From a virus (lineage: Duplodnaviria; Heunggongvirae; Uroviricota; Caudoviricetes): a stretch of 7,812 bases of DNA. A model generated the notes under the pieces. That model saw nothing but the letters and a program-made list of their open reading frames with translations. It did no database searches and was not told the origin of the DNA. Positions 2,354 to 7,812 of the stretch are shown piece after piece (position 1 is the first letter of the stretch; each line of letters begins with the position of its first letter). The stretch lies in the IMG/VR virus record IMGVR_UViG_2681813227_000024; one strand, given 5' to 3'. A program made the position numbers and the translations under genes.

Positions 2354-5026
2354 ATGAGCACAAAACCACTCTTCCTTTTACGGAAAGCGAAAAAATCATC
2401 CGGTGAGCCTGACGTCGTCCTGTGGGCAAGCGACGATTTTGAATCAACCTGTGCCACTCTGGACTACCTGATCGTTAAGTCAGGTAAAAAACTGAGCAAC
2501 TATTTTAAAGCTGTTGCCACGAATTTTCCTGTCGTTAATGACCTGCCCCCTGAAGGTGAGATCGATTTTACCTGGAGTGAACGCTATCAACTCAGCAAAG
2601 ACTCCATGACCTGGGAACTAAAACCGGGAGCAGCACCAGACGACGTTCACCACCAGGATAATGCTCAGGAAACCAAAGAACTGGCGGGAGGCCTGGAAGA
2701 AAACGCGCAGGCAGACGCCCACGGGGATTGCCAGGATTGCGAAGTCTCTGTAGCCACTTTGCGGTTCACACAGCGTCTTCTGCACATTTTTACGTATGCG
2801 GCCGGGGATCGGAAATACCTGCATCATGCCACCCGTAAACAACGCGAACACATTACCGCTCTTGAGATGGATCAGGAAAACAGCTATGTCCAGAATCTGC
2901 TGTTGGCCATACGCGGCATGGCAGAACCGACAACTCTGGATAATGCCGCCCTGCTCCGCCTGACTGATGCAATTAAGGCAGTTTTCTCTATCACGAAAAA
3001 ACATCAGCCCTATGAATTTAAGAATTTCATTTCAGCCTGGCTGGACACCGAACACATTGATCGCGGTCTTCTAACAAAAGAATGGCGAAAAGGGAATCGT
3101 GTTTCACGCATCACTCGCACAGATTCCGGTGCTAATGCAGGCGGCGGGAACCTTACCGATCGCGGCGAAGGTTTCGTTCATGATCAGGCGTCGCTGGCCC
3201 GCGACGTAGCCACTGGCATTCTGGCCCGTTCAATGGACGTGGACATCTATAACCTTCATCCGGCACACGCTAAACGCATTGAGGAAATTATCGCTGAAAA
3301 TAAACCGCCCTTTTCTGTTTTCCGCGACAAATTCATCACCATGCCTGGCGGGCTGGATTATTCCCGCGCCATCGTGGTTGCGTCCGTGAAAGAAGCACCA
3401 ATTGGGATCGAGGTCATCCCCGCGCACGTCACTGAATATCTGAACAAAGTACTGACTGAAACTGATCATGCCAACCCTGATCCGGAAATCGTGGATATTG
3501 CCTGCGGTCGTTCCTCTGCCCCGATGCCGCAGCGTGTAACAGAAGAAGAAAAACAGGATGATGAAGAAAAACCGCAACCATATTGCGCAATGGCAGATGA
3601 ACAGGCAACGGCTGAAACAGTGGAACCGGATGCAACTGAACATCATCAGGACACGCAGCCGCTGGATGCTCAGTCACAGGTAAATTCTGTTGATGAAAAA
3701 TATCAGAAACTGCGGGCAGAACTCCATGAAACACGGAAAAACATTCCGCCCAAAAATCCTGTCGATGCAGACAAATTACTGGCTGCTTCGCGTGGTGAGT
3801 TCGTTGAAGGGATTAGCGACCCGAACGATCCGAAATGGGTAAAGGGGATCCAGACTCGCGACTCTGTGTACCAGAACCAGCCAGAAACGGAACAAAACAC
3901 GCCAGAAACTGTAAAAACCAGCCCGGATGTGAAACAACCTGAACCAGTAGTGCAACAGAAACCGGAAATAGTCTGCAATGCCTGCGGTCAGACTGGCGGG
4001 GATAACTGCCCTGACTGTGGTGCGGTGATGGGCGACGCAACGTATCAGGAAACCTTTAATGAAGAAAATCTGGATGAATCTCAGGAAAAAGAGCCGGAGG
4101 AAATGGAAGGCCCTGAACATCCGCACAATGAGAATGCTGGCAGCGATCTGCATCGCGATTGCAGTGATGAAACTGGCGAAGTCGCAGATCCCGTAATCGC
4201 AGGAGACATAGAGCCTGGTATTTATTACGGAATTTCGAATGAGAATTACCACGCGGGTCCCGGTGTCAGTAAGTCTCAGCTCGACGACATTGCTGATACT
4301 CCGGCGCTGTATTTGTGGCGTAAAAATGCCCCTGTGGACACCACAAAGACAAAAACGCTCGATTTAGGAACCGCTTTCCACTGCCGTGTACTTGAACCGG
4401 AAGAATTCAGTAACCGCTTTATCGTAGCACCTGAATTTAACCGCCGTACAAACGCCGGAAAAGAAGAAGAGAAAGCGTTTCTGATGGAATGCGCAAGCAC
4501 AGGAAAAACGGTTATCACTGCCGAAGAAGGCCGGAAAATTGAACTCATGTATCAGAGCGTTATGGCTTTGCCGCTGGGTCAATGGCTTGTGGAAAGCGCC
4601 GGACACGCTGAATCATCAATTTACTGGGAAGATCCGGAAACAGGAATTTTGTGTCGGTGCCGTCCGGACAAAATTATTCCTGAATTTCACTGGATCATGG
4701 ACGTGAAAACCACAGCGGATATTCAACGATTCAAAACGGCTTATTACGACTACCGCTATCACGTTCAGGATGCATTCTACAGTGACGGTTATGAAGCACA
4801 GTTTGGTGTGCTGCCAACTTTCGTTTTTCTGGTTGCCAGCACAACTGTTGAATGCGGACGTTACCCGATTGAGATTTTCATGATGGGCGAAGAAGCAAAA
4901 CTGGCAGGCCAGCAGGAATATCACCGCAATCTGAGGACCCTGGCTGACTGCCTCAATACCGATGAATGGCCAGCTATTAAGACGTTATCACTGCCCCGCT
5001 GGGCTAAGGAATATGCAAATGACTAA
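2354..5026 (+). CDS. recE: RecE, exodeoxyribonuclease VIII (5'-3' dsDNA exonuclease of the RecET recombination system), 890 aa
   Basis: The N-terminus [26 protein letters not shown] and the C-terminal third ([24 protein letters not shown] ... [25 protein letters not shown] ... [13 protein letters not shown]) match RecE as I recall it, including a PD-(D/E)xK-type nuclease motif (RPD...MDVKT). The protein also carries a central acidic low-complexity region and a C-x2-C-x7-C-x2-C motif (nt 3974-4018). It sits directly upstream of recT with overlapping stop/start. Confidence 0.95.
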
Positions 5027-5828
5027 GCAACCACCAATCGCAAAAGCCGATCTGCAAAAAACTCAGGGAAACCGTGCACCAGCAGCAGTTAAAAATAACG
5101 ACGTGATTAGTTTTATTAACCAGCCATCAATGAAAGAGCAACTGGCAGCAGCTCTTCCACGCCATATGACGGCTGAACGTATGATCCGTATCGCCACCAC
5201 AGAAATTCGTAACGTTCCAGCGTTAGGAAACTGTGACACTATGAGTTTTGTCAGTGCAATCGTACAGTGTTCACAGCTCGGCCTTGAGCCAGGTAGCGCC
5301 CTTGGCCACGCATATTTACTGCCTTTTGGTAATAAAAACGAAAAGAGCGGTAAAAAGAACGTTCAGCTAATCATTGGCTATCGCGGCATGATTGATCTGG
5401 CTCGCCGTTCTGGTCAAATCGCCAGCCTGTCAGCCCGTGTTGTCCGTGAAGGTGACGAGTTTAGCTTCGAATTTGGCCTTGATGAAAAGTTAATACACCG
5501 CCCGGGAGAAAACGAAGATGCACCAGTGACCCACGTCTATGCTGTCGCAAGACTGAAAGACGGAGGGACTCAGTTTGAAGTTATGACGCGCAAACAGATT
5601 GAACTGGTGCGCAGCCAGAGTAAGGCAGGTAATAACGGGCCGTGGGTAACTCACTGGGAAGAAATGGCAAAAAAAACGGCTATTCGTCGCCTGTTTAAAT
5701 ACCTGCCTGTCTCAATTGAAATCCAGCGTGCAGTATCAATGGATGAAAAGGAACCACTGACAATCGATCCGGCAGACTCCTCTGTATTAACCGGGGAATA
5801 CAGTGTAATCGATAATTCAGAAGAATAA
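5019..5828 (+). CDS. recT: RecT, single-strand annealing protein (RecT/Redbeta family), 269 aa
   Basis: ATG 5019 gives [64 protein letters not shown]... ending ...[14 protein letters not shown], 269 aa, matching K-12 RecT as I recall it. The start overlaps the recE stop (ATGACTAA) and follows AAGGA at 5006-5010. The track start at 4962 is an over-extension lying inside recE. Confidence 0.93.
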
Positions 5829-5872
5829 TTCAGCCAAGCGGTGTAATGCACCGCCAACGTGAGATAGTTTTT

Positions 5873-6079
5873 ATGACAAAAACTTTGAGATATGACGATG
5901 TTAAACCATGTCCGTTTTGTGGTTGTCCATCAGTAACGGTGAAAGACATTTCATGATATTACCGGGCAAAATGCAACGGATGCGAATCCCGAACTGGCTA
6001 TGGTGGAAGTGAAAAAGAAGCGCTCGAAAGATGGGATAAACGAACCACTGAAAATATTAATGGAGGCGTTCATGTATAA
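5873..6079 (+). pseudogene. ralR: ralR (lar) restriction-alleviation / type I toxin gene interrupted by an in-frame TGA at 5954-5956
   Basis: ATG 5873 (the K-12-equivalent start is TTG 5885) reads MTKTLRYDDVKPCPFCGCPSVTVKDIS, then TGA, then continues in the same frame as YYRAKCNGCESRTGYGGSEKEALERWDKRTTENINGGVHV to TAA 6077-6079. The two halves together form a CPFCGC...CNGC zinc-ribbon-like motif and a 64-68 aa product like K-12 RalR as I recall it. The downstream half has no start codon of its own. Confidence 0.6.
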
Positions 6080-6260
6080 AATTACCGCTACAATTGAAAA
6101 GGAAGGTGGCACTCCTACTAACTGGACAAGATATTCAAAATCTAAACTAACGAAATCAGAATGCGAAAAAATGCTCTCAGGTAAAAAAGAAGCAGGCGTT
6201 TCCAGAGAGCAGAAAGTAAAACTGATAAATTTTAATTGCGAGAAACTTCAGTCCTCGTGA
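6072..6260 (+). CDS. ydaC: YdaC-like small Rac prophage protein (62 aa), function unknown
   Basis: ATG 6072 with GGAGG at 6062-6066 (5-nt spacer) gives MYKITATIEKEGGTPTNWTRYSKSKLTKSECEKMLSGKKEAGVSREQKVKLINFNCEKLQSS. It overlaps the ralR stop (ATGTATAA) and sits in the position of ydaC in K-12. The track start at 6000 lies inside ralR and lacks a Shine-Dalgarno. Identity with K-12 YdaC is not verified. Confidence 0.55.
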   Translation: MYKITATIEKEGGTPTNWTRYSKSKLTKSECEKMLSGKKEAGVSREQKVKLINFNCEKLQSS

Positions 6261-6292
6261 ATTGCATTGTATTCAAATTAAAACTTCATAGC

Positions 6293-6308
6293 TGATTATT
6301 AATAATCA
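6293..6308. promoter_or_regulatory. Perfect 16-bp AT-rich palindrome tgattattaataatca upstream of xis; candidate operator / protein-binding site overlapping -10-like hexamers
   Basis: The sequence is exactly self-complementary. It lies in the 99-bp ydaC-xis intergenic region, ~50 bp upstream of the xis start, and overlaps TATTAA/TAATAA -10-like hexamers. An imperfect 10-bp inverted repeat (caggcgtcaa 6313-6322 / ttggcgcctg 6336-6345) follows it. Confidence 0.35.
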
Positions 6309-6359
6309 ACATCAGGCGTCAATTTCAGTCTAACATTGGCGCCTGCCAGAGGTGATGCG

Positions 6360-6575
6360 ATGGCACAAGTAATCTTTAATGAAGAGTGGATGGTTGAATA
6401 CGGCCTGATGCTTCGCACTGGTCTGGGGGCCAGACAAATTGAAGCATACCGCCAGAACTGTTGGGTGGAGGGCTTCCACTTCAAACGAGTATCTCCTTTA
6501 GGTAAGCCAGACAGCAAACGAGGGATTATCTGGTACAACTATCCAAAGATAAATCAGTTTATCAAAGACTCATGA
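6360..6575 (+). CDS. xisR: Excisionase XisR (YdaQ), lambda-type Xis DNA-binding protein, 71 aa
   Basis: ATG 6360 with GAGGTGA at 6346-6352 gives [71 protein letters not shown], matching Rac XisR/YdaQ as I recall it. Its stop TGA 6573-6575 lies 1 nt before the int ATG. The track start at 6336 adds 8 residues with no Shine-Dalgarno. Confidence 0.85.
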
Positions 6576-6576
6576 T

Positions 6577-7812
6577 ATGTCTAAATTACCAACAGGTGTC
6601 GAGATTAGAGGTAGAAACATTCGCATCTGGTTCATGTTTCGAGGAAAACGATGTCGGGAAACATTAAAAGGCTGGGAGATTACAAACAGTAATATTAAAA
6701 AGGCCGGAAATTTAAGAGCGCTGATAGTTCATGAAATAAACTCCGGTGAATTTGAGTATTTAAGACGTTTTCCCCAGTCCAGCACTGGGGCAAAAATGGT
6801 GACAACGAGAGTCATAAAAACGTTCGGGGAGCTTTGTGATATCTGGACAAAAATTAAAGAGACAGAGTTAACAACAAACACAATGAAGAAAACGAAATCA
6901 CAATTAAAAACACTCAGAATAATAATTTGTGAAAGTACCCCGATATCATATATTCGTTATAGCGATATCTTAAACTACCGGAATAAACTGCTGCATGGAG
7001 AAACGCTTTACCTGGATAATCCAAGATCCAACAAAAAAGGAAGAACCGTGCGCACAGTTGATAACTATATCGCCCTGCTCTGTTCGCTGTTACGTTTTGC
7101 GTATCAGTCGGGATTTATATCAACCAAACCATTTGAAGGAGTAAAAAAATTACAGCGAAACAGAATAAAGCCTGACCCGTTATCTAAAACAGAATTCAAT
7201 GCATTAATGGAAAGTGAAAAAGGACAGAGCCAAAACTTGTGGAAATTTGCCGTTTACTCCGGGCTTCGTCACGGGGAACTGGCAGCTCTGGCGTGGGAGG
7301 ATGTGGATTTCGAGAAGGGAACTGTGAATGTCAGAAGAAACCTGACGATACTGGATATGTTCGGTCCCCCAAAAACAAATGCCGGGATCCGGACAGTAAC
7401 ATTACTGCAGCCTGCTCTTGAAGCACTGAAGGAGCAATACAAACTGACCGGGCATCATCGCAAAAGCGAAATCACCTTTTATCATCGGGAGTACGGCAGA
7501 ACCGAAAAGCAAAAACTGCATTTTGTTTTCATGCCCAGGGTGTGTAACGGAAAACAGAAACCTTATTACTCGGTAAGCAGTTTGGGGGCAAGGTGGAATG
7601 CAGCAGTAAAACGTGCTGGTATTCGCCGCCGTAATCCGTACCATACGCGGCATACTTTTGCCTGCTGGCTGTTGACGGCAGGAGCGAACCCGGCATTTAT
7701 AGCCAGCCAGATGGGGCATGAAACTGCGCAGATGGTGTATGAAATTTACGGTATGTGGATTGATGATATGAACGACGAACAGGTAGCCATGTTGAATGCG
7801 CGGCTATCGTAG
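6577..7812 (+). CDS. intR: IntR, Rac prophage tyrosine site-specific integrase, 411 aa
   Basis: The N-terminus MSKLPTGVEIRGRNIRIWFMFRGKRCRETLKGW matches Rac IntR as I recall it (lambda-Int-like arm-binding region). The C-terminal catalytic region has the tyrosine-recombinase signature (R...HTRHTFACWLL...GH...YEIYGMW, i.e. HxxR box and C-terminal catalytic Tyr). Full length with TAG at 7810-7812. Confidence 0.95.
   Translation: MSKLPTGVEIRGRNIRIWFMFRGKRCRETLKGWEITNSNIKKAGNLRALIVHEINSGEFEYLRRFPQSSTGAKMVTTRVIKTFGELCDIWTKIKETELTTNTMKKTKSQLKTLRIIICESTPISYIRYSDILNYRNKLLHGETLYLDNPRSNKKGRTVRTVDNYIALLCSLLRFAYQSGFISTKPFEGVKKLQRNRIKPDPLSKTEFNALMESEKGQSQNLWKFAVYSGLRHGELAALAWEDVDFEKGTVNVRRNLTILDMFGPPKTNAGIRTVTLLQPALEALKEQYKLTGHHRKSEITFYHREYGRTEKQKLHFVFMPRVCNGKQKPYYSVSSLGARWNAAVKRAGIRRRNPYHTRHTFACWLLTAGANPAFIASQMGHETAQMVYEIYGMWIDDMNDEQVAMLNARLS

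Follow-up and report, generated by a model that had tools for sequence, protein, structure and literature searches.

The DNA analyzed here, referred to as the window, is a stretch of 7,812 nucleotides that forms the left arm of a Rac-type prophage of E. coli, whose insertion site adjoins ttcA. The genes are arranged in the order ydaF, Rha/Ash regulator, kilR, ydaE, a racC-like gene, recE, recT, ralR, rcbA (DUF1187), xisR, and intR. The gene recE covers positions 2354-5026, recT 5019-5828, xisR 6360-6575, and intR 6577-7812. The rcbA/ydaC-type ORF (DUF1187, 62 aa) is located on the plus strand at 6072-6260; it shares 8 nt with the end of ralR, its ATG overlapping the stop, and nearly all of the ORF is antisense to the gene for the small RNA RalA. 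Both the window and the RefSeq loci that match it have ralR placed within a Rac-type prophage, in the series from recT to rcbA, xisR, and intR and beside ttcA. The Rac prophage of E. coli K-12, which carries the RalR/RalA pair (b1348/b4714), shows the same order of recE, recT, ralR, rcbA with RalA antisense to it, xisR, and intR beside ttcA.

The left part of the window differs from K-12 Rac. Where K-12 has its sieB region, the window contains a Rha/Ash module that includes isrK and C4-like RNAs and resembles P1 immI (isrK/C4/Rha). Rfam located isrK at 667-743 (+; 62.7 bits, threshold 50) and a C4 antisense RNA at 768-855 (+; 73.1 bits, threshold 45). Both RNAs lie within the 5' third of an ORF at 616-1464, which PGAP annotates as 'Rha family phage regulatory protein'; the Pfam family Phage_ASH was assigned to residues 14-109 of this ORF, corresponding to the DNA of both RNAs, and the Rha domain begins at residue 120. 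Either the annotated start of this ORF may lie too far upstream, or part of the Ash 'protein family' may be a translated RNA locus. Furthermore, about 111 bp (108 bp and a small alignment shift) are missing from the window at 551/552. This segment is present in 13E0725, OkiPb01680, FWSEC0003, and the IMG/VR contig L025, and in fact in every close relative examined; L025 (7,923 bp) corresponds exactly to the window span plus the segment. The missing segment could reflect a deletion or an assembly difference. A match to a DicF-like small RNA is located directly upstream of it at 484-538 (+; 42.8 bits, just under the gathering score of 48, E 6.7e-07). Two bases set the window apart, A5837 and T1450; at these sites every compared complete genome and IMG/VR contig carries G and C, respectively. 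A5837 shortens the GGCGGTG/CACCGCC hairpin after the recT stop by one pair.

The ralR frame (5873-6079, +) translates as MTKTLRYDDVKPCPFCGCPSVTVKDIS, a stop, YYRAKCNGCESRTGYGGSEKEALERWDKRTTENINGGVHV, and a second stop. A TGA codon is located at 5954-5956 and followed by 40 sense codons in the same frame before TAA at 6077-6079, in agreement with a preliminary description of this DNA. The same description had noted the motifs CPFCGC before and CNGC after the stop, as well as the lack of an in-frame ATG, GTG, or TTG after TGA; both motifs were seen in the translation, and none of the 40 codons is one of the three start codons. The sole near-start codon in frame past the TGA is ATT at 6056. Re-initiation producing the C-terminal half of RalR is ruled out by the absence of ATG, GTG, and TTG in frame after the TGA.

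The annotated ATG start of K-12 ralR is replaced by TTG at 5885 in the window. An ATG at 5873, which is also found in K-12, provides an in-frame upstream alternative. Since two starts are possible, the stop falls on codon 24 when numbered as in K-12 and on codon 28 when numbering begins at 5873. The remaining 5' part of ralR (5873-5956, +) ends at the TGA and encodes a stub of 27 residues from the ATG or 23 residues from the TTG, the start in PGAP and K-12, with CPFC as its only knuckle. The orphaned 3' part (5957-6079, +), consisting of the 40 sense codons and TAA, has no in-frame start of its own; it encodes the second knuckle CNGC and a helix with W50, D51, K52, and R53. PGAP annotates ralR as the equivalent of 5885-6079 and flags it as 'pseudo, internal stop'.

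Alignment of K-12 ralR (b1348, 64 aa) with positions 5885-6079 was gapless and revealed 16 differences in 195 nt (92% DNA identity). One of them, G70T in ralR, is a G>T change at 5954 by which the Gly24 codon GGA of K-12 becomes TGA; the length of 64 aa and the Gly codon GGA at this site, both given in the preliminary description, were confirmed by this alignment. GGA at 5954-5956 (+) was also found in the nearest intact alleles. The nearest of all is that of strain SJ7, and within ralR the G>T at 5954 is its sole difference from the window, exactly the single base change that had been claimed. With respect to K-12, the window protein therefore differs in having a stop for Gly24, TTG for the ATG start, and Asp for Asn51. 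The Asp codon, GAT at 6035-6037 (+), was linked to every TGA copy seen.

Family membership was examined with the stop translated as Gly. The restored protein matched the NCBIfam RalR equivalog NF007260 end to end with 153.3 bits (cutoff 113, E 2e-45) and Pfam Lar_restr_allev (PF14354) with 50.8 bits (cutoff 28.6) over residues 9-58. The 27-aa stub scored 50 bits with NF007260, under the cutoff of 113, and stayed under the cutoffs of both families. By sequence and position the window copy belongs to the RalR family, but it has no uninterrupted frame of about 64 aa; because the intact frame is missing, it is labelled a pseudogene. A Lar-family search of the whole library yielded 1,690 representatives, from which 59 single-domain members were aligned; conservation was determined over 252 domains. 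Many of the representatives are proteins of 100-430 aa with 2-5 tandem Lar domains, and RalR is a single-domain member. Invariant columns in the 59-member alignment were C9, P10, F11, C12, C30, C33, W50, and N51. Over the 252 domains, C9, C12, C30, C33, and W50 were 98.8-100% conserved and N51 96%, and position 24 was Gly in merely 38%. Like the Lar family (PF14354, TIGR03655), the restored window protein has C9, P10, F11, C12, C30, C33, and W50; it differs in the frame broken between the knuckles and in Asp for the family Asn51. All four Cys ligands, forming two CxxC knuckles, are encoded in the window, but on opposite sides of the stop. The W50-N51 motif is broken as well, with W-D encoded at a site where 235 of 245 domains have Asn and 4 have Asp.

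In the structure that AlphaFold predicts for an intact homologue (pLDDT 78.7), residues 17-22 and 25-30 are strands and residues 43-54 a helix; Gly24 would therefore form the turn of a beta-hairpin between the two knuckles. To say that the stop splits a zinc ribbon, as had been proposed, thus seems a reasonable description on this modest fold evidence. In a sequence search of solved structures, RalR gave a weak match to the chitin-binding protein CbpD, which was regarded as spurious, and nothing else.

Changes of RalR at residues 14, 37, 39, 49, 51, and 52 lower its toxicity, and K52Q abolishes its DNase activity (PMC4041452). Five of these six positions (37, 39, 49, 51, and 52) fall after the stop, and the residues cut off include C30, C33, W50, and position 51. 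From the sequence we strongly infer that truncation would abolish the toxicity and DNase function of RalR. The description of RalR as a DNase toxin goes back to a single study (Guo et al. 2014; PMC4041452), and the gene had earlier been assigned to restriction alleviation as lar (King and Murray 1995, cited in PMC4041452); hence, it is uncertain whether the lost activity was that of a DNase toxin or of Lar. Text on Lar was not found in the EcoSal restriction-modification review.

The antitoxin RNA, which had been expected to be encoded nearby, was placed by Rfam RF02694 on the minus strand at 6078-6256 (218.2 bits, gathering score 170, E 8.8e-53). The match spans model positions 1-179 of 179, indicating a full-length RalA gene that is fully antisense to rcbA and abuts the ralR stop as in K-12. 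Two of 179 positions differ from K-12 (99% identity), namely 165 and 168; these lie in the 3' hairpin and, by direct reading of the sequence, are both synonymous in the overlapping rcbA frame. Within the 80 nt upstream of RalA there are 2 differences from K-12. According to Guo et al. [quoted passage not shown] Its 16-nt seed (RalA positions 63-78; 6179-6194, -) is identical to that of K-12, and the 16-nt pairing site in the ralR mRNA (6007-6022, +), about 50 nt downstream of the TGA, is intact. The sole change in the pairing site, G6022 for A in K-12, converts an A-U pair into G.U and leaves 10 contiguous Watson-Crick pairs plus one G.U as compared to 11 in K-12; the predicted energy of the seed duplex is -18.6 kcal/mol in the window and -19.8 kcal/mol in K-12. 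The 16-nt pairing is thus preserved.

The change G168A introduces a C.A mismatch into the RalA 3' hairpin (6078-6100, -; positions 157-179) relative to K-12, with a possible loss of termination efficiency or stability. G168A also occurs in relatives whose GGA codon is intact; it is therefore unlinked to the ralR stop. A promoter scan identified no clear RalA promoter, the sole strong minus-strand match ending 39 nt upstream of the RalA 5' end, and a terminator scan found no intrinsic terminator in 5700-6400. Across 5885-6256, divergence from K-12 amounted to 8.2% in ralR (16/195) and 1.1% in the RalA/rcbA segment (2/179). This contrast points to a dual constraint, imposed by the small RNA and the overlapping coding frame, or to a recombination boundary.

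The distribution of the TGA allele was surveyed in 5,426 complete E. coli genomes using exact matches to a 61-mer centered on codon 5954-5956. The 61-mer with TGA was found in 15 genomes and the same 61-mer with GGA restored in 58. The best genome matches to window positions 5800-6300 were one base off (5837) and had the TGA in common. OkiPb01680 carries the TGA together with one synonymous change, G5938A, and two sister strains that match with equal identity values are likely to carry it as well. In IMG/VR the TGA was present in 5 of 27 contigs of the window haplotype and in none of 7 metagenome contigs. Other Rac-like prophages, which were to be surveyed according to the preliminary description, thus provided 15 genomes, OkiPb01680, and 5 IMG/VR contigs with the same TGA; the 5 contigs may share isolate kinds with the complete genomes and are not fully independent of them. 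Sources of the carriers include cattle, beef, and humans, and their countries of origin Germany, USA, Canada, and Japan, among others. All five carriers inspected, 2013C-3264, 13E0725, OkiPb01680, FWSEC0003 (O45:H2), and 61_150228, have ralR flagged by PGAP as 'pseudo, internal stop'. The TGA allele is already labelled a pseudogene in RefSeq annotation; a literature search for 'ralR' with 'pseudogene' returned no description of it. Some carriers contain a second ralR-like place elsewhere in the chromosome, as in NZ_CP031916.1 (FWSEC0003) and NZ_CP038372.1 (F6294).

A K-12-type 61-mer into which TGA had been introduced artificially matched none of 1,693 K-12-type genomes exactly, so the ralR TGA is confined to one haplotype. 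Across 501 nt the carriers are identical or one base apart, and they are near-identical from about position 5400 to the window end. Upstream of about 5400, 2013C-3264 and 61_150228 have K-12-like recE/recT, giving two recE/recT mosaics among the carriers, and in 2.9 kb of chromosome beyond intR carriers are up to 46 bases (1.6%) apart. Given this flank divergence and the mosaics, the allele has either persisted through prophage mosaicism or been moved between host lineages by recombination.

These data bear on whether the stop is real and whether it is read as a stop. We consider it very probable that the ralR TGA is a genuine, inherited null allele, i.e., a pseudogene, with RalA kept. A sequencing or assembly error, with G as the true base at 5954 and an intact ralR, had been offered as an alternative, and the difference of the window from intact alleles is indeed a single base. 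Moreover, A5837, T1450, and the gap of about 111 bp set the window apart from every complete genome checked, so that elsewhere its sequence is not beyond question. The T at 5954, however, recurs in the 15 complete genomes with the exact 61-mer, in OkiPb01680, and in 5 IMG/VR contigs; it is common to many independent assemblies, originating from different laboratories, countries, and years, and each inspected copy was flagged independently by PGAP. The TGA is also perfectly linked to D51 in every copy seen, as expected of an inherited haplotype, and the divergent flanks and two recE/recT mosaics of the carriers do not fit an assembly artefact. An error at this base is thereby excluded for practical purposes. 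Programmed recoding, in which UGA is decoded as selenocysteine or read through so that functional full-length RalR is made, is extremely improbable as well. UGA is the selenocysteine codon and the leakiest stop codon in E. coli, and 40 codons remain open downstream of it; the open frame is accounted for by the youth of the allele, as its carriers are identical or one base apart. The 60 nt after the UGA have an MFE of -9.4 kcal/mol (z +0.91), a value equalled or surpassed by 166 of 200 shuffled sequences; a SECIS-like hairpin or other structured recoding signal is thus absent directly 3' of the stop. GGA alleles have an identical sequence downstream of this codon, so nothing has co-evolved with the stop. 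The base after the stop is U, reportedly a context of efficient termination in E. coli (Poole et al. 1995). Furthermore, neither the 59-sequence alignment nor the 252 Lar domains show a break at position 24, and TGA at this codon is absent from all 1,693 K-12-type genomes; the readthrough or recoding site considered in the preliminary description is thus unsupported.

An attenuated or re-purposed allele is only slightly less improbable. It would make traces of a G24W toxin by basal readthrough, or use the stub, or re-initiate at a new AUG. Such an ATG does exist: with T at 5954, positions 5953-5955 read ATG and overlap the TGA (AUGA, 5953-5956). This ATG, a product of the G>T change, opens an out-of-frame ORF of 19 codons, MILPGKMQRMRIPNWLWWK, whose stop codon is located at 6010-6012. 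The ORF ends just beyond position 6000, where an ATG lies in the rcbA frame. Position 24 also appears tolerant, with Gly in 38% of domains, so a readthrough product might fold; any trace of full-length RalR arising by UGA leakage would probably carry Trp there. This product would, however, still have D51 in place of a 96%-conserved Asn at a toxicity-reducing position. The stub, for its part, remains under both family cutoffs and has one CxxC only, and the 20 nt before the new ATG (GTAACGGTGAAAGACATTTC) contain no evident Shine-Dalgarno-like sequence; the 19-codon ORF is regarded as a by-product. A further alternative addresses which event came first and does not conflict with the pseudogene explanation: the toxin may already have been weak or dead through N51D and the TTG start when the stop arose, so that the TGA was functionally neutral. 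We regard this as possible, though less likely than not. It is favored by a nested series of alleles, since AR_0061 has GGA and N51, SJ7 and CAU16175 have GGA and D51, and the window has TGA and D51. In IMG/VR, D51 was found in 5 of 5 TGA copies and N51 in 21 of 21 GGA copies with a readable codon. The series N51/GGA, D51/GGA, D51/TGA suggests a stepwise decay, and the toxin was maybe weakened before the stop, because residue 51 is near-invariant (Asn in 235 of 245 Lar domains, Asp in 4) and is one of six positions at which mutation lowers toxicity (PMC4041452). Replacement of the K-12 ATG start by TTG in the window haplotype points in the same direction. On the other hand, Asn to Asp is a conservative change and Asp is natural in 4 domains; the intermediate is represented by about 4-5 complete genomes, and its linkage to the stop may be one of chance descent.

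Disruption of ralR was not limited to the window haplotype. Independent lesions include a stop after Arg49 (P0009, 11 member sequences) and a stop at Lys44 inside the 16-nt site (IMG/VR L032), frameshifted tails (P0004 and P0005), and internal deletions that fuse ralR to rcbA (P0008, P0010, and P0016). Several independent lesions in public data mean that ralR is repeatedly broken in nature, and the Gly24 stop is the earliest truncation seen. These alleles have in common with the window that one gene was lost independently; they differ in the mutations, their positions, and the confinement of the Gly24 stop to one haplotype. The fusion P0008 is joined exactly at two 16-nt repeats (SEKEA/GVSREQ), which implies a deletion between the toxin target site and the antitoxin seed, direct repeats on the DNA.

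A single G>T transversion at 5954 turned Gly24 (GGA) into TGA, probably as the second of two steps after N51D, an order based on 4-5 intermediate genomes. Ribosomes would then stop after 23 residues when starting at TTG or 27 when starting at ATG. The resulting stub would keep the first CxxC knuckle only; with C30 and C33 absent, a Cys4 zinc ribbon could not form, and with the helix containing W50, N51, K52, and R53 absent as well, neither DNase, toxin, nor Lar activity would be made. The block with the TGA allele would later have spread among cattle-associated, STEC-type E. coli. The proposal that the prophage lost its toxin and kept the flanking genes fits these data: recE, recT, rcbA/DUF1187, xisR, and intR are intact, and the loss of the toxin is indicated by the truncated frame. 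Because RalA and the 16-nt pairing site are intact, what is left of this type I toxin-antitoxin pair is the antitoxin only, and loss of the toxin with the antitoxin retained would be the harmless direction of decay. One might speculate that the orphan RalA serves as an anti-addiction or immunity factor against ralR of incoming or co-resident Rac-like prophages, such as might be represented by the second ralR-like place in some carriers, or as an antisense regulator of rcbA, and that the allelic series reflects selected disarming of the toxin in cattle-associated, STEC-type lineages and not neutral decay; we consider this quite unlikely.

Compared with the K-12 Rac pair, DNA identities are 92% for ralR and 99% for RalA. 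In E. coli K-12, chromosomal copies of hok/sok have reportedly been disrupted by IS elements or point mutations, the antisense RNA genes persisting (Pedersen and Gerdes 1999). These decayed copies share with the window a destroyed toxin frame next to an intact antitoxin RNA gene. They differ in that RalR is a soluble zinc-ribbon protein and not a membrane peptide, and in that the RalA sequence is also constrained by the overlapping rcbA frame. By this analogy, the ralR/RalA locus appears to decay like other chromosomal type I systems, with the toxin lost first.

RalR/RalA has already been characterized and the allele is already a RefSeq pseudogene, so its significance beyond annotation is small. 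When toxin-antitoxin or anti-restriction genes are surveyed, strains with the TGA allele should be excluded from the counts of a working RalR toxin or Lar restriction-alleviation function. The allelic series N51/GGA, D51/GGA, D51/TGA, together with the other disruptions, provides a natural test of which residues RalR/Lar needs. The ralR lesions also bear on the question of whether chromosomal type I toxins routinely vanish while their antitoxin RNAs persist.
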